Assembly (NCBI GenBank): GCA_964573235.1
Contig: CAZNIV010000003.1
Coordinates: 1,482 to 65,481 of the forward strand
DNA length: 64,000 bases
Direction of reading: 5' to 3'
Origin: an uncultured Gammaproteobacteria bacterium
GTDB taxonomy: Bacteria > Patescibacteriota > Patescibacteriia > 2-01-FULL-39-33
Part shown: piece by piece, positions 21,634 to 49,196 of the stretch
Layout: the number at the start of each line of letters is the position of its first letter
Position numbering within the stretch: the first letter of the stretch is position 1
Notes under the pieces: generated by a model
The model's input: the letters and a program-made list of their open reading frames with translations, nothing else
Told to the model about the DNA's origin: nothing
Databases searched by the model: none
Program-made: the position numbers and the translations under genes

Positions 21634-21639
21634 ATGAGT

Positions 21640-25329: not shown

Positions 25330-25344
25330 TTTGCTTAAGAGGTA

Positions 25345-27803: not shown

Positions 27804-27842
27804 TAAAAAAGAATTTATTACCGTATAAGTAACGTTTTACGT

Positions 27843-28925: not shown

Positions 28926-28927
28926 AA

Positions 28928-30649: not shown

Positions 30650-30674
30650 GTTCTAAGTTATTATTGTTATCAAT

Positions 30675-30684
30675 ATTATAACAT
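30675..30684 (-). promoter_or_regulatory. putative extended -10 (TGnTATAAT) promoter for pilus operon
   Basis: Minus-strand ATGTTATAAT lies about 25 nt upstream of the pilB start. Confidence 0.3.
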
Positions 30685-30711
30685 ATTTTGGGGTTAAAGA
30701 GAAAACTAAAA

Positions 30712-30736
30712 AACCCTGAAGTTATTCAGGGTTTTA
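30712..30736. terminator. bidirectional terminator between pilB upstream region and GT4 gene
   Basis: A6-ACCCTGAA-gtta-TTCAGGGT-T4. Confidence 0.5.
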
Positions 30737-30750
30737 GAGCGGGGAGTTTT

Positions 30751-31890: not shown

Positions 31891-32054
31891 ATATTTTTGG
31901 CTATTTGTTGTTGACTAATGATTATAGCACAATGTGATAATTCTGTCAAGTATTTAAGAAAAGTGAGAAATTTTGGAATTAAAGAAGCCCCGCGACCCTA
32001 GTGATTGCATTGGTTGCGTTCACTTTGGGTGGCGGGGCTGGAGGCGGTTGGGGT

Positions 32055-32552: not shown

Positions 32553-32793
32553 GGTAACTACTCCCTGTTGTTTTGAATACACACCACCGACAGTCGTTGC
32601 CGGCAGTAGGAACGACACCAGAACCAGGCACTGAAACTTTTTTCTCCTTTGTTTTTTTGTTTTTGTTGTATTGAAAGGTTCGAAGCTAATCGATTTGTCT
32701 AAAGCACTTTATCAGTACTCGACTAAGTATTGTATCAGATAAGTGTGTATTTGTCAATAGTTAAATGATTAAAATCCCTTAGATTAGCTAAAT

Positions 32794-34482
32794 TTATCTA
32801 ATTTTACCATTAATTAGCCCATTTTTATCTAAAGCGGCATCAGTATTAATTGGTTTGGTGCTATAAGTTAAGGTTTCACCAGTAAGGGTGTCTTGGGCGC
32901 TAGCGGTAGTGGTGTTGATGATTTTTCCAACCATTCCGCCTTGGTCGGCAGTAGGAGTAAACTCTACTTCAAAGGCGCAAGCAATGCTAGGATAATTAGC
33001 ACTAGGGGCATTCACGGTATCAACATTCCAAGTGATTAAGTTATTTTTGGTATCGTAATGAACTCCACCATTAGCGGTAGTAGTGTATTGCCCGGTCCAG
33101 CGGACATTTTGACCAAGAGAAGTTTTAACTTGTAAATCTCTTAGATCATTTATATTGCTAGTAACTTGCATGGCTACCCAATAGCGAGTGGCCTCGCCGA
33201 TTTTCGGCGGTAATGGGCCAAAGCCAATTTGGTCACCTTCGGCGGTGAAGTATTTTAGGGTCACTGGCAAGGTCATTAAAGTGTTGATTTTTTGATTGAT
33301 AACATCAGCTGATTGAAAGCCAATATTGCCATCTGGCATAGTGTAATTTAGTTGGGTGGCTATGTTAAGAAAATTATTTTTTTGTTCACCATCCTTAAGA
33401 TTAATAGAAAAGGGAATGACTATAGACGCTTCTGGATTTAGACTGGCTAAGGCTAAAGTATTAGTGCGATCAAATTTAATGTTAGTGTCGCCTAATAGAT
33501 TATCCTCAGTAATATTAAGGGTGATATTTTTGACGGTAAAGTTTTCATGATTAATAATGGTGGCCAAATAAGAATTAACGCCAAAATTGGCATTTGTACT
33601 ATTGGCTTTAATGACTAAATCAATCTTAGATTTTTTAAAATTAATGGTAATGTTATTTTCAGCTAATTGATTTGAGCTATTGTCGGTAGTAATTTGGATC
33701 TTAAAAGAGTTGAGGGTTTTATTAATATTGTTTTTTACAGTTTTGGCAACAATCGTGCCAGTTAAACTTTGCTTAGGGTTTAGGGTAATGTTTTTTATGG
33801 GCAAAGTAGAAGAAGTGATGATTAAATTATTAGATAATAAATTATGACTCAGGGATAAGTTATTAATCGTGTTGTCACTTTTATTTTCAAGCGTAACATA
33901 GAAGGTAACTGGTTGACCGGCAAAAGCCCAGTCGGTAGCCTTTATGGTTAGAGACAATGGAGAGTCGCTGATATTTATTAGCTGGTTAATTTTTTTGGTA
34001 CGCTTGGCAGTATTGCCCTCGGGGATGAAAGTTAGTATTGAGTAAATTTGTTGTTCAGTTTTTGGCATCGCCCAAAACTTGCCGGAAAGGTTAATGGCGC
34101 CCTTGGCATTAATATCTAAGTCACCTAAGTTAAAGGTGATAGTTTTTTGGTCAAATTTTTGACTTGGAGATCCGCCAATTAATTCAAAGCTGTTAGGTAG
34201 ATTAAAAGTTAGTGTGGCTTGATTAAGTTGTTTACCTGATTTATTTTCGTAAGAAAAAATAAGATTAGTAACATCACCAGCAACAGTAGATTGATTTTGA
34301 TTTTCAGCGATTAAATCAATTTTATTTTCAATACGAAAGGCCACTTTATCTAAATGGCTATATAAACTAAGTGCCAATAAAATACCGACTAAAAAAAGCA
34401 AGAAAAAATTAAATACCAATGGGACCTTTTTTGTTTCAAATCGGCTGGCCGCAAAATCTTTTAGGAGTTTTTTTAGTTTCAT
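32794..34482 (-). CDS. surface protein with DUF11-like repeats
   Basis: N-terminal TM helix followed by repeated beta-rich segments that are N/T-rich. Confidence 0.4.
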   Translation of the reverse strand: MKLKKLLKDFAASRFETKKVPLVFNFFLLFLVGILLALSLYSHLDKVAFRIENKIDLIAENQNQSTVAGDVTNLIFSYENKSGKQLNQATLTFNLPNSFELIGGSPSQKFDQKTITFNLGDLDINAKGAINLSGKFWAMPKTEQQIYSILTFIPEGNTAKRTKKINQLINISDSPLSLTIKATDWAFAGQPVTFYVTLENKSDNTINNLSLSHNLLSNNLIITSSTLPIKNITLNPKQSLTGTIVAKTVKNNINKTLNSFKIQITTDNSSNQLAENNITINFKKSKIDLVIKANSTNANFGVNSYLATIINHENFTVKNITLNITEDNLLGDTNIKFDRTNTLALASLNPEASIVIPFSINLKDGEQKNNFLNIATQLNYTMPDGNIGFQSADVINQKINTLMTLPVTLKYFTAEGDQIGFGPLPPKIGEATRYWVAMQVTSNINDLRDLQVKTSLGQNVRWTGQYTTTANGGVHYDTKNNLITWNVDTVNAPSANYPSIACAFEVEFTPTADQGGMVGKIINTTTASAQDTLTGETLTYSTKPINTDAALDKNGLINGKIR

Positions 34483-34485
34483 ATA

Positions 34486-36585
34486 TTATTGGTTATTATT
34501 GATTATGGAGCTGATAGTAAATACGTTACTACTCAAAGCAATAATTTCTTTTTTGCCATCACCGTTTAAATCAGCTACGGTTACGCTGATGCCTTGACGA
34601 TTTTTCGGTACATAAGCCATAAAAGAGGAAAGTTGTTTACCGGTGTTAGAAAATACTTTTATTTCTGGCAAGGCATTGAAGCCGGCGCCAGTAATAATTT
34701 CTGCCCTGCCATCACCATTAACATCGCCAGCGGTTAGATTAACCCCATTGCGTAATTTATTATTATAAGCAAAAAAATCATTTATTAACTTGCCATTAGT
34801 ATCAAAAACTTTAACATGTGGACCGCCTCCATTGCCAGCTCCAGCGATAATTTCTACCTTGTTGTCGTCATTAATATCACCGACAGCGACATTTACTCCT
34901 AGCTTGATAGTTTTATTATTAAAAGCAGAAAACGATTTTGATTCTTGGCCGTACCAATTGAAAATTTTAATAGTATTGCCACCACCATTTTCTGATCCGG
35001 TGATAATTTCTTTTTTGCCATCGCCATTAATATCGGCTACAGCCAAAGAGATGCCATCTTGATATTTTTCACCATAAGGCATGAAGGTGGCAATGTTAAT
35101 TCCAGTTTCGCCAATAACATTAATAGTATTATTAGAAGCGCTAACGGTTTCAATAGTGCCATTATTATTAACATCGGTTTTGATTACTTTGTTGCTACCC
35201 TTTTGGTTTTTGTCGTAAGTAAAAAAACCGGTGCGAATATTATTTCCGGTGCTATCAAAAATTCTGGCGAAGGCGCCATTGATAAATACCGCATCTTTGA
35301 TTTCATTAACCCGACGGAGAAGAATAATGCCATCACGAGAAGCGAGGGTGACTTTGTTTATGATAGAGCCGTCATTAGTAATAGGATCTTGGTTGCCATG
35401 AATTTTTTCATACTCGCCATCAAAATAGGCTTCTTGGGGGTAGTCGGTAGAATTAACTAAAACAATGCCGTTAGTGAAATCGCGTTGCCAGAGACCACTA
35501 GTCATTTCGGGGTTGTTGGGGTTGAGTAAATTTTTTGTTCGTGATTGTGGTTCACCTAGATTAATATCAAATTCATCATACCACCAAAAGTGTTCACGCA
35601 ATTGTGGGCCGTAATCCATGGCATAAAAACCATTAAAGAGTAAGGAAGAGGCTAGAGTAAAACGCATTTTTTGATAGTCTTGGTTATTGGTGTTACCGGT
35701 ATTGCTATCTATTATATTAATGCGAGGCAAATAGCCGTTACCGTCTACTTGCTCATATTTTTTCATAGAACCAAGCCAGTCACCTTCGTATTGTTCCGGA
35801 AACCCTTCAAACATACGACCATTTAAGTATTGATGGTATAAGCCATCGCCATTGCCGACGATTAAATATTTGCTATCAATACGGGTGCGTAGTTTTTTGA
35901 GCAGATCAATATTGCCCTGTTGCCAGAGGCGGTCAATTTTTTCTTTGTTGTCATATATGCCGTCATTATCGATATCAATTTTGGCGTCCACCCAAGAAAC
36001 GGTTTGCCAGATATTATCTAATAATAAGCCATCCCATAAGCCCGTATTTAAAATTTTGTTTTGGTAAAAATCAGCCAAGAAATCGCCGTAAGTTTTATTG
36101 TTTTCATCTTTACTATAAGGATTCATTGAGACATTACCAGTCCACCAGGAAATATTTTTTCCATCAGTGGTTTTTAATTGCCATTGAGTTTTGGCGGCGC
36201 TAGTTAAATCATGCCACAAACCAATACCGCTTGGCTCGACTTCGTTTAGTCGGTATAGTGGTATTTCGTTGGAAGAAGTATAGGCGAGAATGATAATGTT
36301 TTTATTAAGTTGGCGCATTAGCCTGATAGCATCTGCAGAGTCATTTTGAGCTTGCATGCTTAAAGAAACTAAATCATATTTAGCTAGTTTTTTAGCTTCT
36401 TCTAAAGTAACGGGAGTTTTCCAAAACATGTTGGCCACTTTTGGATATTTGCCATCATTTTTTTGAGTCGCATCACCAGTGAAGTCGGGAAAAAATAAAA
36501 CCAAAGCTAAGAAAGCCGAAGCAAGGATGGTAGCCAAGGTGAAATCTAATTTTTGATATTTATTTCTTTTTCTTCTCATAATCAA
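34486..36585 (-). CDS. surface protein: N-terminal hydrolase-like domain plus C-terminal FG-GAP/VCBS repeats
   Basis: N-terminal TM helix. At least five repeats of the form D-x-N-G-D-G-K-x-E-I-I-x-G (FG-GAP). Confidence 0.55.
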   Translation of the reverse strand: MIMRRKRNKYQKLDFTLATILASAFLALVLFFPDFTGDATQKNDGKYPKVANMFWKTPVTLEEAKKLAKYDLVSLSMQAQNDSADAIRLMRQLNKNIIILAYTSSNEIPLYRLNEVEPSGIGLWHDLTSAAKTQWQLKTTDGKNISWWTGNVSMNPYSKDENNKTYGDFLADFYQNKILNTGLWDGLLLDNIWQTVSWVDAKIDIDNDGIYDNKEKIDRLWQQGNIDLLKKLRTRIDSKYLIVGNGDGLYHQYLNGRMFEGFPEQYEGDWLGSMKKYEQVDGNGYLPRINIIDSNTGNTNNQDYQKMRFTLASSLLFNGFYAMDYGPQLREHFWWYDEFDINLGEPQSRTKNLLNPNNPEMTSGLWQRDFTNGIVLVNSTDYPQEAYFDGEYEKIHGNQDPITNDGSIINKVTLASRDGIILLRRVNEIKDAVFINGAFARIFDSTGNNIRTGFFTYDKNQKGSNKVIKTDVNNNGTIETVSASNNTINVIGETGINIATFMPYGEKYQDGISLAVADINGDGKKEIITGSENGGGNTIKIFNWYGQESKSFSAFNNKTIKLGVNVAVGDINDDNKVEIIAGAGNGGGPHVKVFDTNGKLINDFFAYNNKLRNGVNLTAGDVNGDGRAEIITGAGFNALPEIKVFSNTGKQLSSFMAYVPKNRQGISVTVADLNGDGKKEIIALSSNVFTISSIINNNQ

Positions 36586-37753
36586 TTAATGCTTCATATA
36601 TGGCGGATATTTTTTCGTAGTGTTTATTGGCAGAATAATCTAAACTAAAGGCGTAAGCATTTTTACCCATCCTTGTTGTTTCATTTGGGTTGTCTAGTAA
36701 ATATTGTATTTGCTCAGCCAGTTCTTGGTGATTGTCGCTAGTAAAAAGCAAGCCAGTTTGTTGTGGTTGGATTAGGTTGTTAAATGATCCGGCACGGGAA
36801 GCAATGACTGGCTTGCCACAGGCGAAGGTTTCTAGGGCGCCTAAGCCGAAAGTTTCGTGAACCCGAGAAGGAAAAACGGCAAAGTCAGCATTTTGAATAA
36901 AATTAAGCAATTCGTTTTTTTCTTTGCGTCCGATAAAAACCACCTTGTCAGTTAAGTTTAATTTTTTGACTTGATTTTTTAAATTAATTTCTTCTGGCCC
37001 CGAACCAATGATGACTAATTTGTGGTCGGTTTTAATTTGGGCAAAAGCATTAATTAAAACATCGGCACCTTTGCTTTCATCTAAACGGCCAAAGAATAAG
37101 ACATAAGGATAGCCGATAGGCTTGGGTTGAGTTTGATATCTTTCTAAATCGATAAAGTGGGGAATGACAATAATTTTTTGGGCGTCAAAACCATTTTTAA
37201 TTAGTTGTTCTTTGACAAATAGTGAGGGCGCAATAAACATATCTACATAACGGCGATAGATATTAATTTTTTTATGAAAAGCAAATTCTAGTTTTAGCAG
37301 TAGATCCACTAGACGAGAATTTTTAGCGGGTTGATTTTGGCCGATGCGTAAGGTGTAGTCGTGCTTGATTAGTTTAAAGTCATGAACGGTCATTACAATG
37401 GGTAAATTAAATTTTTTGATCGCTGGCAAAATAGAAGGCGATATTTGATGATAAATATTATGAAGATGGATTAAATCTGGGCGCTCTTTTTTAATTAGGG
37501 CGGAAATTTTTCTGGCGGCGCTGAACGACCAAAATAAGCGACCTAGGCGCCAAAAGCTAGACCAGCTAAATTTATCCAATGGTAAGTCGCTAATAAATAA
37601 GTCACTATTTGGGGAGGGGTAGTTTAGGGGGTGTTTTTGGGAGAAAGTTACATTTTTGTGGCCTTTTTTTTCTAATAAATTCATCAATGAAAATAGGTAA
37701 GTTTCGGTACCGCCTTTAGGATAAAAAAATTTGTTTATATGTAATATTTTCAT
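36560..37753 (-). CDS. glycosyltransferase family 4
   Basis: GT-B fold with a conserved E..E C-terminal region (ETFGLGALETFACGKPVI). Confidence 0.8.
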   Translation of the reverse strand: MKILHINKFFYPKGGTETYLFSLMNLLEKKGHKNVTFSQKHPLNYPSPNSDLFISDLPLDKFSWSSFWRLGRLFWSFSAARKISALIKKERPDLIHLHNIYHQISPSILPAIKKFNLPIVMTVHDFKLIKHDYTLRIGQNQPAKNSRLVDLLLKLEFAFHKKINIYRRYVDMFIAPSLFVKEQLIKNGFDAQKIIVIPHFIDLERYQTQPKPIGYPYVLFFGRLDESKGADVLINAFAQIKTDHKLVIIGSGPEEINLKNQVKKLNLTDKVVFIGRKEKNELLNFIQNADFAVFPSRVHETFGLGALETFACGKPVIASRAGSFNNLIQPQQTGLLFTSDNHQELAEQIQYLLDNPNETTRMGKNAYAFSLDYSANKHYEKISAIYEALIDYEKKKK

Positions 37754-37757
37754 ATAT

Positions 37758-39218
37758 TTAATTTTGAATACTATTTTTGTTCACCACGGTGATAGTGCGA
37801 ATTAGACCCAGGATAATCCAGAAAAAAATGCCGGTTAAGTTAGTTTCTAAATAGGGCTGAAAGAAGCTAGCAATAAAAAATAGGACACCAGCGCTAATGA
37901 TTGGTAGGTAGTAAGGGGTTAATTCATGATTGAGATAAATTTGTTTAAAACTAGTAGCTAAAACGGAGATGATAAAAGCAATGAATAAGATAAAACCAAT
38001 TAGGCCGGTTTGAATGAGAATGGCCAACGGGGAATTATGTAGATTGCGTAATTCTTCGTAGTTTTGCCAATCGCCAGTTTGCAAGTTGACACGCTTGCCA
38101 AAGCCGGTGCCAAGCATTGGGTTTTTTAGCCAAGAGTTTAAAGCAATGGTCCACAAGTCTTTGCGCCAAATAGCACTAGCATCTTCTTGTAAATTAACAA
38201 TAGAAGAAGCGCGAGTTACTAGATATTCTCCGGTAGTATTAATATTAGCGCTAAGTTGTTGGCGTGGATACAATGAAGTAATAGTAAGAATGATGGCGAT
38301 GGCGCTAAAAATAATTAAAATATTTTTGGCAGAAAAATTAAGGATTTTCTTTTTTGCTTCTTTGGGAATAATTAAGATTAAAATTACCAGAGCAACAATT
38401 AAGGCTAGCCAGAGATGACGCATTAAAGATACGGCAATGCCAAGTAGCCAAATCCATAAAATTAATCCGGCTATTTGTTGGTTAGCGAATTTTTTAAATG
38501 CCAAAAAGCTTAATAAGATTAAAGAGGAAAGACATAAATAAAAAGCGTGAGTGCCAGCTAGTAAGCGCAGGCCAGTAGTGGATAGGGGAGTAAATTCAGT
38601 CCACAAGCCTTGCCCAGTGATTAAGCCGTAGAGGATAAAAGGAATAATGATTACGCCACCCAAAAGAATTACTTCTATAAGTCGTTTTAAATCTTTGGCT
38701 TTTTGAACTGAATAGATAATTAAAAAGTAGATGGCGGAATAAAAGACATAATTTTTTAAGGTAGAAAAGGCGATATCGACTTGCACATTGTAGTCGGTTA
38801 AGGAACGAATAAAGGTAAATAGATTAATCAATATAAATATAATTAGGAGTGTTTCTGGCCAACCCCAAATGAATTGCACGCGCGCTCTTTTTTGTAGGCG
38901 TAAATGGATTAAAAAACTAATAGCAGTTAAGATAATTAAAATATCCAAGGGATATAGTTTATAGATGGTTTGGTCAATGACTAATGATTGCAAGGTAAAA
39001 TATCGTTCAAAGACCATAGTAAGTAGAATAATCATGTTCAATCCCAATTGTTCGCTGTAGAAAATAAAAGCTAAGCCCGTAATGACAAAAATCGAATACA
39101 GCCAGATATTGGGAGCCAGTATCATTAAGAGGATTAAGATGGCAAAATAAATAAAAGCCAGACTATTGATTAGAATAGTACGGCTTTTGGTATTAGAATT
39201 TTGGTCGATGGCCAGCAT
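37758..39218 (-). CDS. O-antigen ligase / Wzy-like polysaccharide polymerase
   Basis: 486 aa, about 12 TM helices and a large periplasmic loop, typical of the O-antigen ligase family. Confidence 0.55.
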   Translation of the reverse strand: MLAIDQNSNTKSRTILINSLAFIYFAILILLMILAPNIWLYSIFVITGLAFIFYSEQLGLNMIILLTMVFERYFTLQSLVIDQTIYKLYPLDILIILTAISFLIHLRLQKRARVQFIWGWPETLLIIFILINLFTFIRSLTDYNVQVDIAFSTLKNYVFYSAIYFLIIYSVQKAKDLKRLIEVILLGGVIIIPFILYGLITGQGLWTEFTPLSTTGLRLLAGTHAFYLCLSSLILLSFLAFKKFANQQIAGLILWIWLLGIAVSLMRHLWLALIVALVILILIIPKEAKKKILNFSAKNILIIFSAIAIILTITSLYPRQQLSANINTTGEYLVTRASSIVNLQEDASAIWRKDLWTIALNSWLKNPMLGTGFGKRVNLQTGDWQNYEELRNLHNSPLAILIQTGLIGFILFIAFIISVLATSFKQIYLNHELTPYYLPIISAGVLFFIASFFQPYLETNLTGIFFWIILGLIRTITVVNKNSIQN

Positions 39219-39221
39219 AAT

Positions 39222-40079
39222 TTATTTTTGGGATGAATCCTGACTTGGTTCTTCTGGAGTGTAATGAGGAGTAGGGTATTGATATTGATTAAGTAAGTTT
39301 TCGTTAGTAGATTCGGCTAGTAATTCCGACTCAAGAGAGGCTTGATTGTTGTATTGGTTAACTAATTCTTTACGATTGCTAGTAATGGAGAATAGTCTTT
39401 GTTGAGGAAAAATAACGATCAAGGTAAGGCTTAAAAATAACCCAGCCACCAAACCGAGTAAGCTGTTGCGTAATATTTTTGGTTCGGCCCATTTATCGGA
39501 AACAGATGGTTCATTAACAGTGCGAATTAAAACATTACTACCAAAGCCGTGATAGTATTGATGATTATTTTTAATAGTAGTAATAATGGCGTTAATCATT
39601 TTTTCGGCTTGATCGCGATCTGGATGTAAGACAGCCACTTCCATGATGCCGTTGCCATCTTTAATTTTTACGGTTACCATATTTTTCCAATTGTTCAATC
39701 TTTTTTCGTCAGTAGTGCCAAGATTATCAATTAAAGCAGGGTTGGTTTTGTAGACTTGACTAATAAAGGAATTAGAATAAGCTACTTCGCCTAAAATTCC
39801 GGCGATATAGTCAGAAGAGCGGGAGGCGGTGTATGGGTCGATGCTATTCTGATTGAAAACGACAATGATTTTAGAGGTAGCTAGATATTTTGGTGTTTGC
39901 ATAAAGCTTAAAAGTAAGCTTAAGGCACCAAAAAAAAGCGTAATAATTGTTACGGTAATGAGGTTGTGACGATTGAATAAGGTTTGGTTCATAGCTATTT
40001 GGCTAAAATTAGGTTTATTTAAAATATAAATTATCTGTTTAAACTTTTTTATTATAACAAATTTAACATAATTTGTCAA
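39222..40079 (-). CDS. Wzz-like polysaccharide chain-length determinant protein
   Basis: N-terminal TM helix plus a Wzz N-domain-like segment (KYLATSKIIV...), with a C-terminal TM helix. Confidence 0.5.
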   Translation of the reverse strand: MTNYVKFVIIKKFKQIIYILNKPNFSQIAMNQTLFNRHNLITVTIITLFFGALSLLLSFMQTPKYLATSKIIVVFNQNSIDPYTASRSSDYIAGILGEVAYSNSFISQVYKTNPALIDNLGTTDEKRLNNWKNMVTVKIKDGNGIMEVAVLHPDRDQAEKMINAIITTIKNNHQYYHGFGSNVLIRTVNEPSVSDKWAEPKILRNSLLGLVAGLFLSLTLIVIFPQQRLFSITSNRKELVNQYNNQASLESELLAESTNENLLNQYQYPTPHYTPEEPSQDSSQK

Positions 40080-40115
40080 TAGGGGTTAATTTTATTAAAG
40101 ATTTGTATTTAAAAG

Positions 40116-40144
40116 TAGACATTAATGTCAAAAATTATTATAAT
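40116..40144 (+). promoter_or_regulatory. putative sigma70 promoter (TAGACA-17-TATAAT) containing 12-bp palindrome GACATTAATGTC
   Basis: Hexamers sit at 40116-40121 and 40139-40144. The palindrome at 40118-40129 lies in the divergent intergenic region. Confidence 0.4.
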
Positions 40145-40156
40145 GATACCAAATAA

Positions 40157-40537
40157 TTGCCAAATATGATACTTTCTTTTTTGGAGGAGAAAATTAAAAC
40201 CAATCCGGCACGACGGGACAAAGTTATTCTAATCAACGCTTTATTGGCTTTGGTTTTTAATGTAGCCCTATGGGTGTTATTTTTGTATTATTTTCATTCA
40301 GCTAGTGAATATATTGTGTTGAAGTATAATATCTATTTTGGCATCAGTGACTTAGGACTATGGTATTATGTGCTATTTTTGCCCTTAATAGGTTTGTTGG
40401 TTTTGTTGATAAATTATTTTGTGGCTTTGCTTATTTTTTTGCGCAATACTTATTTGAGTTATTTATTATCTTTCAGTTCTAGTATTGTTAATTTATTGTT
40501 ATTAATTGCTGGGTTGTTTTTAATTTATAAAAATTAA
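40157..40537 (+). CDS. small polytopic membrane protein (unknown function)
   Basis: The track start is TTG; an ATG at 40166 is more likely. Three or four TM helices. Confidence 0.5.
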   Translation: MPNMILSFLEEKIKTNPARRDKVILINALLALVFNVALWVLFLYYFHSASEYIVLKYNIYFGISDLGLWYYVLFLPLIGLLVLLINYFVALLIFLRNTYLSYLLSFSSSIVNLLLLIAGLFLIYKN

Positions 40538-40551: not shown

Positions 40552-40707
40552 ATGTCTATAGAGTTTTTGGTGGTCAAAGTATTCTTTTTTGCTTTTATTT
40601 CTTTTGTAATTGCTATTTTGTGGACGCCATTATTAACTCATTTTTTGTATAAATATCGCTTGGGACAAAGTTATTCTAATCAACGCTTTATTGGCTTTGG
40701 TTTTTAA
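40552..40707 (+). pseudogene. duplicated 5' fragment of mraY (first 38 codons) fused to 13 out-of-frame codons
   Basis: MSIEFLVVKVFFFAFISFVIAILWTPLLTHFLYKYRLG is identical to the MraY N-terminus, followed by QSYSNQRFIGFGF*. Confidence 0.5.
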
Positions 40708-40984
40708 TGTAGCCCTATGGGTGTTATTTTTGTATTATTTTCATTCAGCTAGTGAATATATTGTGTTGAAGTATAATATCTATTTTGGCATCAGTGACTT
40801 AGGACTATGGTATTATGTGCTATTTTTGCCCTTAATAGGTTTGTTGGTTTTGTTGATAAATTATTTTGTGGCTTTGCTTATTTTTTTGCGCAATACTTAT
40901 TTGAGTTATTTATTATCTTTCAGTTCTAGTATTGTTAATTTATTGTTATTAATTGCTGGGTTGTTTTTAATTTATAAAAATTAA
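40691..40984 (+). pseudogene. N-terminally truncated duplicate of the small membrane protein gene
   Basis: Identical to residues 30-126 of the 40157 ORF. Only a TTG start is available. Confidence 0.45.
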
Positions 40985-40998: not shown

Positions 40999-42108
40999 AT
41001 GTCTATAGAGTTTTTGGTGGTCAAAGTATTCTTTTTTGCTTTTATTTCTTTTGTAATTGCTATTTTGTGGACGCCATTATTAACTCATTTTTTGTATAAA
41101 TATCGCTTGGGTAAGCAAATTCGCGCCAGTGAAGATGCGCCAATCTTTGCGCAGTTACATCAAAAAAAATCTGGCACGCCGGTAATGGGTGGTATGTTGG
41201 TATGGGTAACCACCTTGGTATTGGCGTTACTTTTTTGGTTGTTAGGATTTTTATTTAATGGGATGTTTAGCGGTCTTAATTTTTTAAGTCGCGCCCAAAC
41301 CTGGTTACCGCTGGGAGCATTGGTTATTACGGCTTTGGTTGGTATGGTGGATGATTATTTAAATGTGCGTCGTATTGGGCCAAAGGGGGGCGGTTTTTCT
41401 ATGAAGCATCGTTTGATTTTATATACAATCATTGCCATTGTGGTGGCTTGTTGGTTTTACTTTAAGTTAGATTGGGATTTAGTGCGAGTGCCTTTTTTGG
41501 GAGATTTTAATATTGGTTGGTGGTATATTCCATTCGCAGTATTTGTAGTAGTGGCGACCGCCTTTTCGGTTAATGAAACAGATGGCTTAGATGGTTTGGC
41601 TGGTGGCACCTTAATGACTTCTTTTTTGGCGATTGGTGCCATTGCTTTTATCCAGCAGCGTTATGACTTGGCTACTTTTTGTGCTGTAATTGCTGGGTCT
41701 TTATTGGCATTTTTATGGTTTAATATTGCTCCGGCTCGTTTTTTTATGGGTGATACGGGCGCTATGTCTATGGGGGTGGTATTAGCCATTATCGCCCTGC
41801 TAACCAATTCTGTTTTATTGTTGCCAGTTATTGGTTTGGTTTTTGTCTTAGAATCAGTTTCGGTGTTAATCCAAATGATTTCTAAAAAGTTAAGAAAAGG
41901 AAAAAAGATTTTTTTATCTACTCCGATCCATCATCACTTCGAGGCCGTTGGTTGGCCAGAAACTAAAATAGTGATGCGTGCCTGGGTAATATCGATGGTA
42001 GTAGCGGTAGCTGGTTTAGCTTTGTTTTTAACAGATGTTAAAACTAATAAAGATAATCAATATACAACGCAATGCAAAATTTTAGATAATAAATTAGATC
42101 ATAAATAA
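40999..42108 (+). CDS. mraY: phospho-N-acetylmuramoyl-pentapeptide transferase MraY
   Basis: NETDGLDGLAGG and HHHFE motifs, with 10 TM helices. Confidence 0.9.
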   Translation: MSIEFLVVKVFFFAFISFVIAILWTPLLTHFLYKYRLGKQIRASEDAPIFAQLHQKKSGTPVMGGMLVWVTTLVLALLFWLLGFLFNGMFSGLNFLSRAQTWLPLGALVITALVGMVDDYLNVRRIGPKGGGFSMKHRLILYTIIAIVVACWFYFKLDWDLVRVPFLGDFNIGWWYIPFAVFVVVATAFSVNETDGLDGLAGGTLMTSFLAIGAIAFIQQRYDLATFCAVIAGSLLAFLWFNIAPARFFMGDTGAMSMGVVLAIIALLTNSVLLLPVIGLVFVLESVSVLIQMISKKLRKGKKIFLSTPIHHHFEAVGWPETKIVMRAWVISMVVAVAGLALFLTDVKTNKDNQYTTQCKILDNKLDHK

Positions 42109-42110
42109 TT

Positions 42111-42779
42111 ATGACTGAAACGAAAATAACAGTGGGCGGTCAAGTATTTGATCGTTTTCATGTTAAGACTCATGTAGTAATGTTTGGGGATAAAATTGAA
42201 GACGTAGTAGAAAAATATGCTAAGCCAATTTTGCAAGCAAATGATTGGTTGTTTATTAGTGAGAAAGTAGTAGCGGTTACCCAAGGTCGCGCTTATAAAA
42301 TTGTAGATATTAAAGTTTCATTTTTAGCTAATTTTTTAGTGAAGTTTGTTTATAAGTCACCGTATGGTATTGGCTTAGGCCGACCGCAAACAATGCAATT
42401 AGCTATTAACGAAGCGGGGGCTTGGCGTATTTTGTTAGGCGCTTTAGTTTCGGCTATTACTAAACCGTTTGGGGTTCGCGGTATTTTTTATAAAGTAGTG
42501 GGCAAGGGAATTAATGCGATTGATGGCCCATGTGACTATACTCTGCCGCCTTATAATCAATATGCTGTTCTTGGCCCTAAAGACCCGGATAAGGTAGCTG
42601 CTATGCTGGCGGAGAAAAATAATTGCGAAGTGGTGATTGTGGATGCTAATGATTTAGGAGTGGCCATTTTAGGTGCCAGCAAAAATGTTGATCGGAAGTT
42701 AGCAGCGGAAATTTTTCGGGATAATCCATTAGGGCAAACAAATGAACAAACCCCACTTTGTGTAGTGAGAAAAATTTAA
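42111..42779 (+). CDS. CofE-like (F420-0:gamma-glutamyl ligase family) protein
   Basis: VVAVTQGRA and G-rich nucleotide-loop regions are similar to CofE. 222 aa. Confidence 0.55.
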   Translation: MTETKITVGGQVFDRFHVKTHVVMFGDKIEDVVEKYAKPILQANDWLFISEKVVAVTQGRAYKIVDIKVSFLANFLVKFVYKSPYGIGLGRPQTMQLAINEAGAWRILLGALVSAITKPFGVRGIFYKVVGKGINAIDGPCDYTLPPYNQYAVLGPKDPDKVAAMLAEKNNCEVVIVDANDLGVAILGASKNVDRKLAAEIFRDNPLGQTNEQTPLCVVRKI

Positions 42780-42780
42780 T

Positions 42781-44181
42781 ATGGATTTTAAAAATAAAAA
42801 AATAGTGGTTATGGGCTTGGGTCTTTATGCGGATGGCTCAGGTATTTCGGCCACTAAATATTTATTAGCCCAAGGTGCTAATATAGTAGTGACTGATTTA
42901 AAAACGGCTGAACAACTTAAATCGCAATTAGAGCGCTTAGGGGATTTAGTTAATCAGGTAGAATTGGTTTTGGGTCAGCATCGGGAGAGTGATTTTTTGG
43001 ACGCTGATTATATTATTCGTAATCCGGGCGTGCCAAAATCGTCTAGATTTTTGCAGATCGCTAGAGAACATAATATTCCGATTGAATCTGATATTTCTTT
43101 ATCATTTAAGCTTATAAATAAAGATCGTTTGTTGGCGGTAACAGGAACTCGTGGCAAGAGTACAACTACTAGCTTGCTTTATGAGATTATTAAAGCTAAT
43201 GATAAGCGAGCAGTTTTGGGGGGTAATATTACTAAATCGCCGTTAGCCCAAATGTCTGCTGTAAAAAAGGGTGGTCCGGTGGTTTTGGAGTTATCTTCTT
43301 TTTTATTAGAAACTTTGGAGCCGTTTAAAGTGTCTCCGCATGTGGCTGTGTTTACTAATATTTACCCAGATCATTTAAATGCTTATAATAATATTGCTGA
43401 ATATGTGGCAGCTAAAGAAAATATTTGGCGGTGGCAAGAAAAAGATGATTTTGTAATTTTAAATCGTGATAATTCGATTACTAAAGCCATGGGAAAGAGG
43501 GTGGTTAGTCAGCGCTTGTGGTTTTCTCTAAAGTCATTTACTCAAGAGAATGGTGTTTTTGTAAAAAAAGGTAAAATTGTGGCGCGTTTGAACGGGGAGG
43601 AAAAAAATATTTTGGCTGTTAAGCAATTAAAAATGATTGGTGAACATAATGTGGCCAATGCTTGCGCGGCGACGGCAGCCGCCTTGGTTTATGCCGTTCC
43701 TTTGGCAGTTATTAAGGTAGTGTTAAAAAATTTTAAGGGCATTGCTGATCGCTTAGAGTTACTGAAAGAAGTTAGGGGTGTAAAATATTATAACGATACC
43801 ACTTCGACTACACCAGAAGCGGGATTAGTGGCGCTGGATGCTTTTAAAAAATACAAAAAGAAAATCGTGATGATTGCTGGCGGTTCTGATAAGGGGTTAA
43901 ATTTTTCTGAAATTGTTAAAAAAATGAAAAGCCATTGTGAGGCCTTGGTGCTTTTAAATGGCACAGGTACGGTTAGATTATTAGAGACTATTAAACAATC
44001 TAAATTGCGTTGCCCTGTGCTTGTGGTTGATTCTATGTTAGAGGCGGTTAATCAGGCCAGTGGTTTAGTTAAAAAAGGTGGTATTGTTTTATTATCCCCT
44101 TGTTGTGCTAGCTTTGGCATGTTTTCCAATGAGTTTGATCGAGGGGAAAAATATCGCTCAGCGGTGAAAAAAATTAAATGA
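42781..44181 (+). CDS. murD: UDP-N-acetylmuramoylalanine--D-glutamate ligase MurD
   Basis: Mur-ligase P-loop GTRGKSTTTS. Position after mraY supports the call. Confidence 0.85.
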   Translation: MDFKNKKIVVMGLGLYADGSGISATKYLLAQGANIVVTDLKTAEQLKSQLERLGDLVNQVELVLGQHRESDFLDADYIIRNPGVPKSSRFLQIAREHNIPIESDISLSFKLINKDRLLAVTGTRGKSTTTSLLYEIIKANDKRAVLGGNITKSPLAQMSAVKKGGPVVLELSSFLLETLEPFKVSPHVAVFTNIYPDHLNAYNNIAEYVAAKENIWRWQEKDDFVILNRDNSITKAMGKRVVSQRLWFSLKSFTQENGVFVKKGKIVARLNGEEKNILAVKQLKMIGEHNVANACAATAAALVYAVPLAVIKVVLKNFKGIADRLELLKEVRGVKYYNDTTSTTPEAGLVALDAFKKYKKKIVMIAGGSDKGLNFSEIVKKMKSHCEALVLLNGTGTVRLLETIKQSKLRCPVLVVDSMLEAVNQASGLVKKGGIVLLSPCCASFGMFSNEFDRGEKYRSAVKKIK

Positions 44182-45332
44182 AAGAAAATAAAATTAAAAA
44201 TTGGTTAAGGAGTTTTTTTTATAAATCAAATGGGCAACAGGCCGATTGGTATCTTATTGGCTTGGTAACCTTTTTGTTATTTTTTGGTTTGGCTATTTTG
44301 TCATCCGCTTCATCGGTAGAAAGTTATCGAGTGTATGGTGATACTTATTGGCATTTGCGCCACCAGTTAATATATGGAGTGCTACCAGGTGTATTGTTTT
44401 TTGTTTTTTTTGCCTTTTTTGATTATCAAAAGCTGCGTAAATGGGCTTTTCCAATATTTTTATTAGCCATTTTTTTATTAGTACTGGTTTTTATTCCTGG
44501 GTTTGGTAGTACTAACAATACTTTTGCCAAAAGTTGGATTCATCTTTTTGGTTTTTCTTTTCAGCCAGCAGAGGTTGCTAAGCTATCATTTATTCTTTAT
44601 TTATCATCTTGGTTAGCATCGCGTGATAGTGATGTGATTAAAGATGCGAAGCAGGGATTTTTTCCATTCCTTTTTTCTTTGGGCGTTATTGGTGTATTAA
44701 TGATTATGCAACCAGATTGGGGCACTTTATTAATTATTGTGTCGATTGCGATAGCTATTTTTTTTGTGGCCGGTGGTAGTTTAAAGCATATTTTTTGGTT
44801 GATTATTTGTGGAATTGGGGTTTTTTCTTTATTAGTATCTAAATCGGCCACTACCTTAAAACGCTTGACTACTTTTTTACATCCAGAGCTGGATCCTAAG
44901 GGTATGGGGTATCAGATTAATCAAGCATTGTTGGCGGTTGGCTCTGGTGGTTGGTTGGGTCGCGGATTTGGTCATTCGCGCCAAAAGTTTTCTTATTTGC
45001 CAGAGGTTTATGGTGATTCGGTTTACGCTATTGCGGCGGAGGAATTAGGTTTTGCATTTTCGGTATTGATTGTGTTGGTATTTTTATTATTGTTTTTTAG
45101 AGGATTGAAGATTGCTAATAATTGTGAGGATAAGTTTGGTAAATATGTAGCAGTTGGTATAGCGACTTGGTTGATTACTCAGGCGTTTTTAAATATCGGG
45201 GCCATTATTGGTATTTTTCCTTTGACCGGCGTGCCGTTGCCATTTATTTCTTATGGTGGCACATCGCTGGCGGTGGCTTTGGCGGCTTGTGGTATTTTAG
45301 TTAATATTTCTCGCCAAACAAATCGCTACTAA
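44178..45332 (+). CDS. ftsW: SEDS-family peptidoglycan glycosyltransferase FtsW
   Basis: 10-TM SEDS signature regions. Its position in the dcw cluster supports the call. Confidence 0.85.
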   Translation: MKENKIKNWLRSFFYKSNGQQADWYLIGLVTFLLFFGLAILSSASSVESYRVYGDTYWHLRHQLIYGVLPGVLFFVFFAFFDYQKLRKWAFPIFLLAIFLLVLVFIPGFGSTNNTFAKSWIHLFGFSFQPAEVAKLSFILYLSSWLASRDSDVIKDAKQGFFPFLFSLGVIGVLMIMQPDWGTLLIIVSIAIAIFFVAGGSLKHIFWLIICGIGVFSLLVSKSATTLKRLTTFLHPELDPKGMGYQINQALLAVGSGGWLGRGFGHSRQKFSYLPEVYGDSVYAIAAEELGFAFSVLIVLVFLLLFFRGLKIANNCEDKFGKYVAVGIATWLITQAFLNIGAIIGIFPLTGVPLPFISYGGTSLAVALAACGILVNISRQTNRY

Positions 45333-45384
45333 TTGCCAAGATGGTCGGCTTTTGGTATTTTAAGTAGTAGAAAGGAATTAAATT

Positions 45385-46485
45385 ATGAACAATCAAACTG
45401 TAAGAGTTAGTGAAAAAATTATTAATCAAGGGCGTATTTTGTTTGCTGGAGGTGGTACTATGGGTTCCGTTAGTCCATTAATTGCCGTTCAGGAATACAT
45501 TAAAAAACAATTTCCTAATATTAAGTTTTTGTTTGTTGGCACTTATAGTGGTCCAGAAAAACAAGCTGTAGAAAGTTATAAGATTGTTTTTAAGGCTATT
45601 GCTTCTGGAAGATTGCGTCGTTATTTTTCTTGGCGTAATATTACCGATCCGTTTTTGGTAATTTGGGGATTTTTGCAGAGCTTGGTTATTCTTATTAAAT
45701 TTAAACCGAGCGTTGTAATGATTGCAGGTGCTTTTGTAGGGGTGCCCGTGGCTTGGGCGGCCTGGCTATTGGGTATTCCGGTAGTGATTCATCAACAAGA
45801 TATTTTACCGGGCTTGGCTAATAAGTTAATGCAAAGAGTGGCTAAAAGAATTACTGTTTCGTTCGATATTTCACTTAATGATTATTTGCAATCAAAAGTA
45901 GTATTAACCGGTAATCCGGTTAGAGAAGAATTTTTGTCTTGCGATTTACAGCATAGTCGCGATTTTTTTAATTTAAAAAGTGATTTACCAGTATTGTTAG
46001 TATTGGGCGGTGGAACCGGTGCGCAAATTATTAATGAATCAATAGTTAAGGCTTTAGCGGAGTTGTTGCAATTTTGTCAGGTGATTCATATTACGGGTAA
46101 GGGCAAGGCGATAAGAGTAGAAGCAGAAAATTATCATCAGTTTGAGTTCTTGTCTCATGAAATGCCAGATGCGCTTTGCGCGGCAGATGTAGTAGTAAGC
46201 AGGGCTGGTCTTTCTACTTTAACAGAATTAATTGCTATGGCTAAGCCGACTATTTTAGTACCTATTCCGGGGCATCAAGAAGATAACGCTTTATTTTTTC
46301 AAAAAAACAATGCAGTAACTTCTATTTCTCAAGACGCATTTAATTCGGAATTAATCATTTCTTTGGTTAAAGATATTATGTTTGATAAGGCCCGTAAAGA
46401 TAATTTGTCTCGTAATATTTCTAAGATGATGGAAGTTGGTGGGGCAGAAAAAGTAGCAGCCATCTTGTTGTCAGTAGCTAAATAA
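45385..46485 (+). CDS. murG: undecaprenyldiphospho-muramoylpentapeptide beta-N-acetylglucosaminyltransferase MurG
   Basis: GT28 N- and C-domains with a GGGTG loop. Confidence 0.85.
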   Translation: MNNQTVRVSEKIINQGRILFAGGGTMGSVSPLIAVQEYIKKQFPNIKFLFVGTYSGPEKQAVESYKIVFKAIASGRLRRYFSWRNITDPFLVIWGFLQSLVILIKFKPSVVMIAGAFVGVPVAWAAWLLGIPVVIHQQDILPGLANKLMQRVAKRITVSFDISLNDYLQSKVVLTGNPVREEFLSCDLQHSRDFFNLKSDLPVLLVLGGGTGAQIINESIVKALAELLQFCQVIHITGKGKAIRVEAENYHQFEFLSHEMPDALCAADVVVSRAGLSTLTELIAMAKPTILVPIPGHQEDNALFFQKNNAVTSISQDAFNSELIISLVKDIMFDKARKDNLSRNISKMMEVGGAEKVAAILLSVAK

Positions 46486-46487
46486 AT

Positions 46488-47861
46488 ATGGAATTAAAAG
46501 AGTTTAAAAAAGTATTTTTTACAGGCATTGGCGGTGTGGGAATATCGGCAACTGCGAGGATTTTAAATTTTCAGGGAATCAAAGTCTCTGGTTCTGAAGT
46601 AACTACTAGTGAGTTAACGGAACAGCTGATAAGAGAAGGAGTTAGCGTGGTGATCCCCCAAAAGGCGGAGAATGTGCCTATTGATGCAGGTCTATTGGTT
46701 TATAGTGTAGCTGTGCCAGAAGATAATCCAGAGCGTCAAGTGGCGAAAAAATATGGCATCAAAGAAATAACTTATCCTCAGTTATTGGGATTATTAATGA
46801 AGGATCAGTATGGCATAGGTGTTTCTGGTACTAATGGTAAAACCACCACGACCGCTCTGTTGAGTTTATTGTTTTTGGAAGCGGAAAAAGATCCGACCGT
46901 GGTTTTGGGTGGCAAGACAGATTATTTAGGGGGGAATTCACGAGTGGGCAGTAGTCAATATTTTATTTTTGAAAGCGATGAGTACCGTCGCGCATTTGTT
47001 AATTATTTTCCTAAAATGGCAGTGGTGACTTATGTGACTGAGGATCACCTGGATTATTATAAAGATATTAACGATATTAAAGCGGCTTTTAGGGATTATT
47101 TGGTCAAAGTACCGGCCGATGGTTTTATTTTTGCTAACGCTGATGATGCTAATTCTTTAGAGGTGGCTGGCGGTGCGCAGGCGCGAAAAATTACTTTTGG
47201 CATGGATAATCAAGCGGATATTATGGCAAAAAATATTCGCGTGGCTAATGGTCAGCAAATTTTTGATTTAAGTTTTATGGATAAAAAACTGGGGGAAATG
47301 CAATTGCATTTGCCAGCCAAATATAATATTTATAATGTATTAGCGGCTGTTGGCCCAGCGCTCATGGTTGGTTTGGATTTTAAAGTAATTCAAAAGGCGG
47401 TGGCTAAGTTTAAGGGTAGTTGGCGTCGTTTTGAAAAGATCGGCCAATTTATGGGTATTGATGTAATTTCGGATTACGCTCATACACCCGATGCGGTGGA
47501 GAAAACGATTTTAGCAGCGCAGGAATTTTATCCGGGTAAAAAAGTATTAACCATCTTTCAGCCCCATCAGTATAATCGGACGAAGAATTTTTTTGAGCAA
47601 TTTGCGTTGGCATTTAAGGGCGCTGATCAGGCTTTTGTGATGGATATTTTTTTTGTGAAAGGCCGAGAAAATCCGGCGGATTTTGATGTGAGTAGTGAAA
47701 AATTGGCAGTTGAGGCAGTTAAGTTAGGCGGTAGGGTAGCTTATTTGAATAAATTAAATAAAGAGACCCTAAGTCAATTATTAAAGGCAGATAATTACGG
47801 TTTAATCTTAACTATGGGTGCGGGTGATATTTATAATTATGCCAAAGAATTAGTGAAGTAA
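46488..47861 (+). CDS. murC: UDP-N-acetylmuramate--L-alanine ligase MurC
   Basis: GVSGTNGKTTTT P-loop. Full-length Mur ligase. Confidence 0.9.
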   Translation: MELKEFKKVFFTGIGGVGISATARILNFQGIKVSGSEVTTSELTEQLIREGVSVVIPQKAENVPIDAGLLVYSVAVPEDNPERQVAKKYGIKEITYPQLLGLLMKDQYGIGVSGTNGKTTTTALLSLLFLEAEKDPTVVLGGKTDYLGGNSRVGSSQYFIFESDEYRRAFVNYFPKMAVVTYVTEDHLDYYKDINDIKAAFRDYLVKVPADGFIFANADDANSLEVAGGAQARKITFGMDNQADIMAKNIRVANGQQIFDLSFMDKKLGEMQLHLPAKYNIYNVLAAVGPALMVGLDFKVIQKAVAKFKGSWRRFEKIGQFMGIDVISDYAHTPDAVEKTILAAQEFYPGKKVLTIFQPHQYNRTKNFFEQFALAFKGADQAFVMDIFFVKGRENPADFDVSSEKLAVEAVKLGGRVAYLNKLNKETLSQLLKADNYGLILTMGAGDIYNYAKELVK

Positions 47862-47862
47862 T

Positions 47863-48825
47863 ATGAAATCAATAACAGAATTGGCAAAAATAGCCGGTGC
47901 AGAAGTTAAAGAAAAAGAGCCATTGGCCAAATGGACGACTTTTAAAATTGGTGGACCGGCAAAATATTTTGTAGTGATTAGGAGTATAGAAAAATTAGGG
48001 GCAGTTTTGAATTTTTGTCGCGAGAAAAAAATGCCTTATATTATTTTAGGTGGTGGCAGTAATCTGTTGATTGGTGAAAAAGGTTTTGCTGGATTGGCGA
48101 TAAGACTAATGGCAGATAATTTTTTAGTAACAGAAAATAAAATAACAGTGGATGCCGGGATGAGTTTGACGCGCTTGGTTGGTTTAACTGCCCAGTGTAG
48201 CTTAAGTGGTTTAGAGTGGGCGGCTGGTATTCCAGGAACAGTAGGCGGAGCGGTTCATGGCAATGCCGGAGCTTATGGAGGTAGTATGAGTCAATGCGTT
48301 AATGCGGTAACTATTTGGCGTGATGGTAAAATTGTTAAGCTAAACAAAGAGGATTGCCATTTTATTTATCGCGGTAGTATTTTTAAAGCTACTCACAATA
48401 AGGATGTGATTTTAAGTGCCGAGTTAGTTTTAAATTTGGGTGAGGAAAAGACGATTCGTGCCAAGATGATGGAAATTATTAACAAGCGTCGAGCAAAGTT
48501 TGTTAACATTAATTCGGCGGGATCTACTTTTAAAAATATTGAAATGACAGAGGCGGAAATTTTAGAGTTTAAGAAAAAATATCCTGATTTGCCAGATGAA
48601 TTTGTAAAATATAGAAAAATCCCGGCTGCTTGGTTAATCGATCAATGTGACTTGCGAGGCAAGACTATTGGTGGGGCGCAGGTTTATGAAAATCATGCTG
48701 GAATAGTAATAAACATTGGCCAAGCAACGGCTGAGAGTGTTATAATGTTAATAAGTGTCATTAAGCAAAAAGTAAGAATGGAATTCGGCTTGCAATTGCA
48801 TGAAGAAATAGAGTATATTGGATAA
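47863..48825 (+). CDS. murB: UDP-N-acetylenolpyruvoylglucosamine reductase MurB
   Basis: FAD-binding PCMH domain (GGGSN) plus a MurB C-terminal region. Confidence 0.85.
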   Translation: MKSITELAKIAGAEVKEKEPLAKWTTFKIGGPAKYFVVIRSIEKLGAVLNFCREKKMPYIILGGGSNLLIGEKGFAGLAIRLMADNFLVTENKITVDAGMSLTRLVGLTAQCSLSGLEWAAGIPGTVGGAVHGNAGAYGGSMSQCVNAVTIWRDGKIVKLNKEDCHFIYRGSIFKATHNKDVILSAELVLNLGEEKTIRAKMMEIINKRRAKFVNINSAGSTFKNIEMTEAEILEFKKKYPDLPDEFVKYRKIPAAWLIDQCDLRGKTIGGAQVYENHAGIVINIGQATAESVIMLISVIKQKVRMEFGLQLHEEIEYIG

Positions 48826-48861
48826 GGCGGAAGCCATACTAATTAATAACTAAAAAACAGT

Positions 48862-49170
48862 ATGGAAATCATTATTAAAGCAAAAAATGCTCAATTGACC
48901 CCAGAGGGTCATAAGCTAGTAGAAGAAAAAATCGGTTCTCTAGATAAATATTTTGATGGTATTATTAAGGCTCATGTAGAGGTTGGTATTAACTCGATGC
49001 ATCATCAGAAAGGTAATATTTATATAGCTGAAGTAGAGCTTCATGTGCCTGGTAAACAGTTGATGGCCACCGCTGAAACCGAAGATGTTCAGACCTCAAT
49101 CGACAAGGTCAAAGACATTTTGAAGCGAGAATTGATTAAGTATAAAGAAATGTTACAGTCACACAAATAA
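48862..49170 (+). CDS. hpf: ribosome hibernation-promoting factor (RaiA/HPF short form)
   Basis: MEIIIKAKN...LTP...KIGSLDKYF is an S30AE-family sequence. Confidence 0.85.
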   Translation: MEIIIKAKNAQLTPEGHKLVEEKIGSLDKYFDGIIKAHVEVGINSMHHQKGNIYIAEVELHVPGKQLMATAETEDVQTSIDKVKDILKRELIKYKEMLQSHK

Positions 49171-49173
49171 TCT

Positions 49174-49196
49174 AAGCGGCCTTCGGGCCGCTTTTA
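49174..49196 (+). terminator. terminator after hpf
   Basis: AAGCGGCC-ttcg-GGCCGCTT followed by TTT. Confidence 0.5.

Follow-up and report, generated by a model that had tools for sequence, protein, structure and literature searches.

A divergent protein with a predicted CofE-like fold encoded between mraY and murD in a Patescibacteriia genome

The stretch analyzed here, called the window, comprises 64,000 nucleotides with a base composition of ~36% G+C from contig CAZNIV010000003.1 (positions 1,482 to 65,481, forward strand; assembly GCA_964573235.1), filed as an uncultured Gammaproteobacteria bacterium and placed by GTDB in the Patescibacteriia. The base composition and the best database relatives also assign the contig to Patescibacteria/CPR. 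It carries a tightly packed division and cell wall (dcw) operon in which a gene of 222 codons, here called X, lies between mraY and murD. X occupies positions 42111..42779 of the + strand and starts with ATG. Two nucleotides separate the TAA stop of mraY (40999..42108, +; TIGR00445, 217 bits), at 42106-42108, from the ATG of X at 42111, and a single nucleotide separates the TAA of X, at 42777-42779, from the ATG of murD at 42781 (42781..44181, +; TIGR01087, 392 bits), so that the junction sequences agree with the coordinates and gaps of an initial annotation made from the sequence alone. The unit reads mraY-X-murD-ftsW-murG-murC-murB-hpf, with ftsW (44178-45332), murG (45385-46485), murC (46488-47861), and murB (47863-48825), all on the + strand, assigned with Pfam. 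An hpf-like ribosome hibernation factor gene (48862..49170, +; PF02482, 64 bits) is the final gene ahead of a hairpin terminator at 49174..49193 (+; 8-bp stem, six GC pairs), the sole strong one past the operon. The first genes of the unit are a small membrane-protein open reading frame (ORF) at 40157-40537 (+) and a duplicated copy of it at 40691-40984, and the best promoter-like site 5' of the operon, TAGACA-17-TATAAT at 40116..40144 (+), is a consensus match only. Searches of the 64 kb using phmmer with MurC and MurD returned murC and murD as the only Mur-ligase-family genes; murE and murF are therefore absent from the window, as had been reported initially. The absence of F420 genes was likewise reproduced in the stretches annotated family by family, namely, ~7.8 kb 5' of X (on contigs ending ~110 nt past X) and, with Pfam, 36560-40537 and 40999-49170.

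The only Pfam match of X is to PF01996 (F420_ligase), at 31.4 bits (gathering cut-off, 25; E value of 1.7e-7) and over profile positions 2-149 of 218 only. Mur_ligase_M, Mur_ligase_C, and N-terminal Mur domains are lacking, as are CobQ-type and Asn_synthase domains in X itself. A search of NCBIfam, including the TIGR01916 equivalog, gave no match at an E value of ≤0.01, and relatives of X reach 21-29 bits against TIGR01916, for which the curated cut-off is 180.65. Of the two profiles that the initial annotation had named for recognizing the CofE (F420-0:gamma-glutamyl ligase) family, X is thus matched by PF01996 and not by TIGR01916.

An AlphaFold2 model of X, predicted as a monomer from a 32-sequence alignment, has a mean predicted local distance difference test score (pLDDT) of 85 and a predicted template modeling score (pTM) of 0.82. 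Compared chain by chain with the Protein Data Bank (PDB) in Foldseek, this model retrieved only the "butterfly" fold of CofE from Archaeoglobus fulgidus (AF2256; PDB 2PHN, 2G9I, and 7ULD), with E values of 2e-8 to 2e-7, a TM score of ~0.6, and 17-18% identity, while the next match had an E value of >1. PDB searches by sequence with X and by profile with the alignment of its close relatives (A1) did not find CofE. The A. fulgidus CofE sequence was recovered via a bait sequence, and a CofE profile (A2) was then built. Alignment of the X family with the single CofE sequence in hhalign was too weak (probability, 9.8%), whereas profile A1 aligned with profile A2 at a probability of 91.6% (E value of 8e-7) over X residues 16-181, roughly the N-terminal two-thirds of the CofE chain. 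On the strength of profile and predicted structure, X belongs to the CofE family at the superfamily level, in a tight dcw operon as initially proposed, and by the same sequence comparisons it is not a CofE orthologue.

The alignment of A1 with A2 locates the residues that X shares with CofE. Segment S50-R60 (SEKVVAVTQGR; 42258..42290, +) is the equivalent of CSTVISKAEGR in CofE; family-wide, the motif is SE(K/R)xxAxxQGR in X and CSTxxSKAEGR in CofE, with the G and R retained. Two aspartates are also common to both: D138, within N135-N149 (NAIDGPCDYTLPPYN; 42513..42557, +), lies opposite CofE D109 (numbering of the CofE paper), and D178, the first residue of the DAND motif (D178-D181; 42642..42653, +), lies opposite D150. 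Both are invariant in the CofE alignment A2, in the 32 close relatives of X (A1), and in 82 divergent ones (A4). A third motif, D204-Q209 (DNPLGQ; 42720..42737, +), places Q209 tentatively at the position of CofE E208 in a forced global alignment. X also has a nearly invariant segment that CofE lacks and that is gapped in the alignment, K82-E101 (KSPYGIGLGRPQTMQLAINE; 42354..42410, +), with the pattern KSPYGIGLG...TMxLA and invariant residues K82, S83, G86, I87, G88, L89, T94, M95, L97, and A98. The pLDDT of the model is low (58) at residues 81-90, and the insert is presumably a new substrate-binding element. C141 was considered as a catalytic cysteine and rejected, since the position after DGP is Thr in 53 relatives and Cys in 11.

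What X lacks is the equipment with which CofE holds its cofactor substrate. A 2024 structural study (PMC10861534) attributes the grip of CofE on the deazaflavin of F420 to three elements, the G153-C155 segment, the C-terminal R234, and a domain-swapped beta-hairpin. X is ~58 C-terminal residues shorter than CofE, and the second Asp motif is followed by a median of 43 residues in the X family (after DAND) versus 101 in CofE (after TDTNG), which leaves the G153-C155 segment, the hairpin, and R234 without counterparts. In a forced alignment these elements correspond to three stretches of CofE with no partner in X, namely, the GRCFRRG loop, a hairpin of 19 residues, and the final ~28 residues. Moreover, a 2021 review of F420 does not list Patescibacteria among the producing lineages. 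Because TIGR01916 is not matched, the F420-holding parts are absent, and the host lineages are not listed producers, the name "coenzyme F420-0:L-glutamate ligase" that homologues of X bear in the databases is almost certainly wrong for this family. The initial suggestion that X acts on something other than F420 is upheld to the extent that action on F420 is very unlikely.

The X family is large, widespread, and constrained. More than 3,500 homologues are found in a 90%-clustered collection, the top 120 at 61-73% identity to X, and members are ~60-70% identical across phyla. A strict peptide pattern of X recurs in 476 GTDB species, and an exhaustive profile search gave 1,329 representative clusters at an E value of ≤1e-3 and 310 at ≤1e-30. 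Labeled members from the Candidate Phyla Radiation (CPR) come from Uhr-, Portnoy-, Giovannoni-, Falkow-, Kaiser-, Nomura-, Lipton-, Magasanik-, and Kerfeldbacteria and Paceibacterota; beyond the CPR they come from Oscillospiraceae/Ruminococcaceae, Limnochordia, WOR-3, Caldipriscus, and Armatimonadota. The 32-sequence alignment has 61 invariant columns. X is 65-66% identical to its syntenic orthologues, compared with 51-52% for MurD, 51-56% for MurC, 52% for MurB, 56% for FtsW, and 59-60% for MurG; MraY (69-74%) is the only protein of the operon that exceeds it. The nonsynonymous divergence (dN) from these orthologues is 0.27-0.29, with saturated synonymous divergence (dS), and this, together with the number of homologues, indicates that X is a real gene under purifying selection. 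X thus ranks among the most tightly conserved small proteins of these reduced genomes, above most Mur enzymes of its own operon, a level of conservation which suggests that it probably does something important. No paper describing the family was found in the literature, and X was absent from the Saccharibacteria transposon sequencing supplements in which it was looked for.

Many long relatives found in the representative profile search carry X at their C terminus. Among 82 long relatives, 27 have GATase_7 and Asn_synthase domains ahead of X (Pfam), and an AsnB-like region lies N-terminal to X in 47 of 150 representative clusters (phmmer). Such AsnB-X fusions occur in the CPR, for example in Nomurabacteria. 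The AsnB part of some passes the TIGR01536 cut-off, and NCBIfam gave no subtype beyond this generic model. Other partners were each seen once, namely, formate-tetrahydrofolate ligase (FTHFS), PlsY, CDP-OH transferase, AhpC, Amidase_3, ADK, M20 peptidase, TPR, HD_4, and GNAT, so that the AsnB-type module is the sole recurrent partner across the family. This partner is often degenerate: the N-terminal Cys nucleophile is present in only ~6 and the SGGxDS PP-loop in 11 of the 47 modules, whereas the X motifs AIDGP, DAND, and NPLGQ are retained in 33-36 of the 39 longest. As judged from these motifs, X is the constant part and the AsnB-like module frequently a pseudo-enzyme. Many modules of the representative set (P0241-P0390; e.g., P0302, P0345, P0351, and P0324) resemble pseudo-enzymes, with Ser, Gly, Thr, or Ala for the catalytic Cys and no SGGxDS. 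A minority look intact (P0251, P0292, P0318, and P0338), and P0251 and P0318 have both an MCG nucleophile and SGGxDS. A CofE-family ligase domain within a fusion protein is also known from FbiB of Mycobacterium tuberculosis, where it is the N-terminal domain; FbiB, however, has a nitroreductase-fold domain fused at its C terminus and serves F420, whereas X carries its AsnB-type modules at the N terminus. The genes around five AsnB-X fusion loci showed no recurrent theme: gatCAB directly downstream, murB at +3, and a penicillin-binding protein (PBP) gene at +4 were each seen once. The first of these cases is locus L082 (6266-11953), in which an intact AsnB-X fusion is followed directly by gatC, gatA, and gatB, encoding the tRNA-dependent amidotransferase.

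The position of X in the dcw operon is specific to the clade of the window. The order mraY..X-murD-ftsW-murG-murC recurs in 2 of the first 80 loci, which were taken from GTDB (L001 and L002), and in a small number of metagenome loci from the window's clade, and the conservation of operon position across relatives for which the initial annotation had called is therefore confined to these. In 76 of the 80, no mur, mraY, or ftsW gene lies within 8 kb of X; murC lies 5' of X in L008, and murG and murC are close by in L027. Most of ~110 nonredundant loci have no cell wall gene near X. Clustering of the four ORFs on either side and Pfam annotation of 62 operonic neighbors found no conserved neighbor, the commonest being UDG (5), GH130 (4), GlmS (4), cupin (4), and YkuD (3). 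Within the clade, the mraY-X-murD core is kept while surrounding genes change: an FG-GAP/YkuD L,D-transpeptidase gene sits between mraY and X in L001 and L002, and a 158-amino-acid ORF separates X from murD in L100. The initial remark that this slot holds no Mur ligase has no bearing on function; what the closest relatives carry between mraY and X is an L,D-transpeptidase gene rather than murE or murF.

All four YkuD genes among ~1,050 neighboring ORFs are directly beside X, in three arrangements (L001, 6323-7753; L002, 6602-7999; L008, 8691-9278; L077, 8515-9297). They are of one closely related subtype with the catalytic motif PVSHGCVRL, and those of L001 and L002 begin with an FG-GAP part. 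Beyond these four, no YkuD gene was found among ~1,700 neighboring ORFs of 160 loci. Because the independent metagenome set yielded no new case, this adjacency, which had looked striking, was downgraded to a weak hint. That set did add same-clade members embedded in dcw, a murC-X junction, and further glmS-X loci from gut Oscillospiraceae. The last is the only conserved two-gene arrangement outside the clade of the window, with glmS directly 5' of X on the same strand in L039, L050, L052, L063, L068, L148-L159, L164, L172, and L173 (gut Oscillospiraceae/Ruminococcaceae). In a separate arrangement in a widespread lineage of Limnochordia-type Bacillota (L089-L092, 7004-8038), X shares 38 nt with the 3' end of an orphan gene of the AIRS/PurM superfamily, the two lying downstream of accD-accA-pfkA-pyk; the best score of this gene is to thiL (113 bits; cut-off, 184). 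It was dropped as a candidate partner, as it matches no characterized family and occurs in a single Bacillota lineage.

For a test of enrichment, the 160 loci were collapsed into 74-109 lineages, and the slots one or two genes from X were compared with distal slots. Cell wall genes fill 5.0-7.2% of the former and 2.3-2.8% of the latter (odds ratio, 2.2-2.7; P = 0.007-0.03). Five of the 12 cell-wall-positive lineages appear to be the window's own clade, and with this clade counted as one event an estimated ~12% of lineages have a cell wall neighbor, against roughly 10% expected from the distal positions. With a rate so near expectation, the peptidoglycan link is real for the clade and weak for the family, and dcw placement in one clade is no evidence of family function. 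The initial step from operon position to a peptidoglycan-precursor substrate is accordingly not sustained, given that two of 80 loci share the arrangement, no neighbor is conserved, and the enrichment comes mainly from the clade itself.

Taken as a whole, the sequence and model evidence leads us to favor, with modest confidence, the reading that X is a divergent, F420-independent enzyme of CofE fold that still activates a carboxylate with the help of a nucleotide and a metal and still forms an amide, but on a new substrate, its dcw placement being a capture within one clade. In such an enzyme, a nucleoside triphosphate and a divalent metal would convert the carboxylate of a substrate other than that of CofE to an acyl-phosphate, which would then react with an amine to form an amide bond. 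The substrate would be an Asp/Glu-type carboxylate, whether free or terminal in a peptide, because the AsnB-type module is the only family-wide partner. In the clade of the window, X would have been captured by the dcw operon and would be cotranscribed with the peptidoglycan genes. Within the CofE superfamily, the X family is probably a neofunctionalized branch, in principle like FolC2 (CT611) of Chlamydia, a CofE-family protein of F420-less bacteria that was recruited to a different substrate and is the best precedent for the shift proposed here.

Several observations weigh against this reading. The residues S42, T43, K47, and E49, invariant in CofE (P0121 numbering), are replaced by E, K, V/I, and Q in X. 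CofE D109, D150, T151, and E208, which vary little or not at all in alignment A2, presumably form the Mn2+/GTP site, with D109 and D150 as presumed Mn2+ ligands. The residue check proposed in the initial annotation comes out divided at these positions, with D138 and D178 standing at D109 and D150, T151 replaced by Ala, and E208 probably by Gln, the last in a forced C-terminal alignment that sets DNPLGQ of X on LLMGE of CofE and is not significant by itself (E value of 0.37). Given such replacements, nucleotide use or the ligase chemistry could have changed. The degenerate AsnB module is hard to fit with a simple two-step pathway, and, with cell wall genes modestly enriched beside X, a cell wall role is conceivable. 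Finally, the active site of CofE lies at a dimer interface (PMC10861534), whereas X was modeled as a monomer.

A more novel reading, which we consider unlikely, is that the family constitutes a new class of amide-forming enzymes on the CofE scaffold, acting on an Asp/Glu-type carboxylate either as an AsnB-independent Asn/Gln-type synthetase or as a MurT-like stem-peptide amidase/ligase. X would then functionally replace the fused AsnB modules and would be a near-core, unrecognized enzyme of Patescibacteria.

The peptidoglycan setting suggests a rival, likewise unlikely, in which X activates the D-isoglutamate alpha-carboxylate or the meso-diaminopimelic acid (mDAP) epsilon-carboxylate on UDP-MurNAc-peptide or lipid II. 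Amidation or amino acid addition would follow, as with MurT/GatD or AsnB/LtsA, yielding the modified stems that transpeptidases need. The arrangement mraY-X-murD persists in the window and at least four related genomes, although genes have come and gone around it; the YkuD genes described above adjoin X, as do murC in L008 and L145 (two genes off in L027), a PBP gene in L074, and glmS in gut Oscillospiraceae; one relative of X is fused to Amidase_3; and the per-slot enrichment points the same way. According to the literature, mDAP is amidated by enzymes of the AsnB family that carry the annotation asparagine synthase, and amidated stems are a requirement of L,D-transpeptidases. This proposal has to contend with the 76 of 80 loci devoid of nearby mur, mraY, and ftsW genes, the failure of the metagenome set to extend the L,D-transpeptidase adjacency, and the dominance of one clade in the enrichment. 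The neighborhoods of the fusion genes show no specificity for the cell wall, and the loss of the glutaminase Cys and PP-loop from most of the fused AsnB modules makes a shared-ammonia amidation machine unlikely in these. The likeness to MurT/GatD and AsnB/LtsA, which activate carboxylates and form amides on stem peptides, is one of analogy only: the recurrent fusion partner of X is an AsnB-family module, and X adjoins murD in the window, but X itself contains no Mur-ligase, CobQ-type, or Asn_synthase domain, and its family-wide link to the cell wall is weak.

The AsnB fusions could instead mean that X is an Asn/Gln-type amide synthetase that phosphorylates free Asp or Glu at the side chain carboxylate for attack by ammonia, thereby duplicating or replacing the reaction of the fused AsnB or supplying glutamine to amidotransferases. 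The decay of AsnB motifs in a recurrent fusion in which the X motifs stay is the pattern expected if X suffices, and CofE itself has a high-affinity L-glutamate pocket and activates the gamma-glutamyl carboxylate with GTP (PMC10861534). The intact AsnB-X fusion directly 5' of gatCAB and the adjacency of X to glmS, which also encodes a glutamine amidotransferase, in Oscillospiraceae are in line with this proposal. The gatCAB adjacency, however, is a single case, and stand-alone X is never beside a stand-alone AsnB gene in the 160 loci or the window, where the only matches were to GlmS, via the shared GATase domain. We regard this synthetase as rather improbable.

The chlamydial precedent suggests, with still less likelihood, that X is a glutamylase of folate, or of another pterin or cofactor, which replaces FolC on salvaged folates. 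Chlamydial CT611/FolC2, a COG1478 protein of an organism without F420, complements an Escherichia coli folC mutant; the window has no FolC-like gene of the Mur-ligase family, and one relative of X is fused to FTHFS. But folC2 stands in a strictly conserved folate cluster, whereas no folate gene occurs among the 62 operonic neighbors of X or the neighbor clusters. Such a function would also leave the AsnB fusion unexplained. The carriers of X include Oscillospiraceae and Limnochordia, which presumably have FolC, and the parts of CofE that hold the flavin or pterin are missing from X.

That X is a genuine CofE that glutamylates F420-0, as the database name, the fold, and the PF01996 score above the gathering threshold would have it, is hardly tenable in view of the missing TIGR01916 match (21-29 bits for relatives), the ~17% identity, the absence of every named F420-contact element and of cof genes from the annotated neighborhood, and the position of Patescibacteria outside the listed producers.

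The distinction matters since thousands of entries from Patescibacteria and gut Bacillota are named F420-0:L-glutamate ligase, and metabolic reconstructions may misread them as F420 metabolism. The often catalytically dead AsnB-type partner provides a concrete handle on the function of X. If the substrate of X is a cell wall precursor or a core amino acid, a metabolic gap would be filled in a vast and little-understood share of bacterial diversity, and X would be a second re-use of the CofE scaffold after chlamydial FolC2.

Three independent assemblies with an identical X (L096, 1-1972; L176, 1-8542; L177, 1-4001) end 85-110 nt past its stop, inside the 5' end of murD, a coincidence that points to heterogeneity among strains or to a spot at which assemblies break. 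At the other end of the unit, a perfect 300-nt direct repeat (40215-40514 and 40662-40961, spaced by 447 bp) duplicates most of the small membrane-protein ORF. This ORF is single copy in L176 and L177, other assemblies of the same organism, and in the relatives L001, L002, and L100; the single copy ends 14 nt (L176 and L177) or ~10 nt (L100) ahead of mraY. The duplication 5' of mraY reflects either variation among strains or an artifact of assembly.

GC skew is positive in all 2-kb bins of the window (0.02-0.33), including the long minus-strand gene block at 21319-40079, and without a change of sign neither an origin nor a terminus of replication is evident. A minus-strand block of surface-polysaccharide type (34486-40079), oriented divergently to the dcw unit, contains a Wzz-like gene, a Wzy_C O-antigen-ligase-like gene, a GT4 glycosyltransferase gene, and a gene for a 699-amino-acid FG-GAP/GHL15 protein. 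This block is syntenic in L001 and L002.

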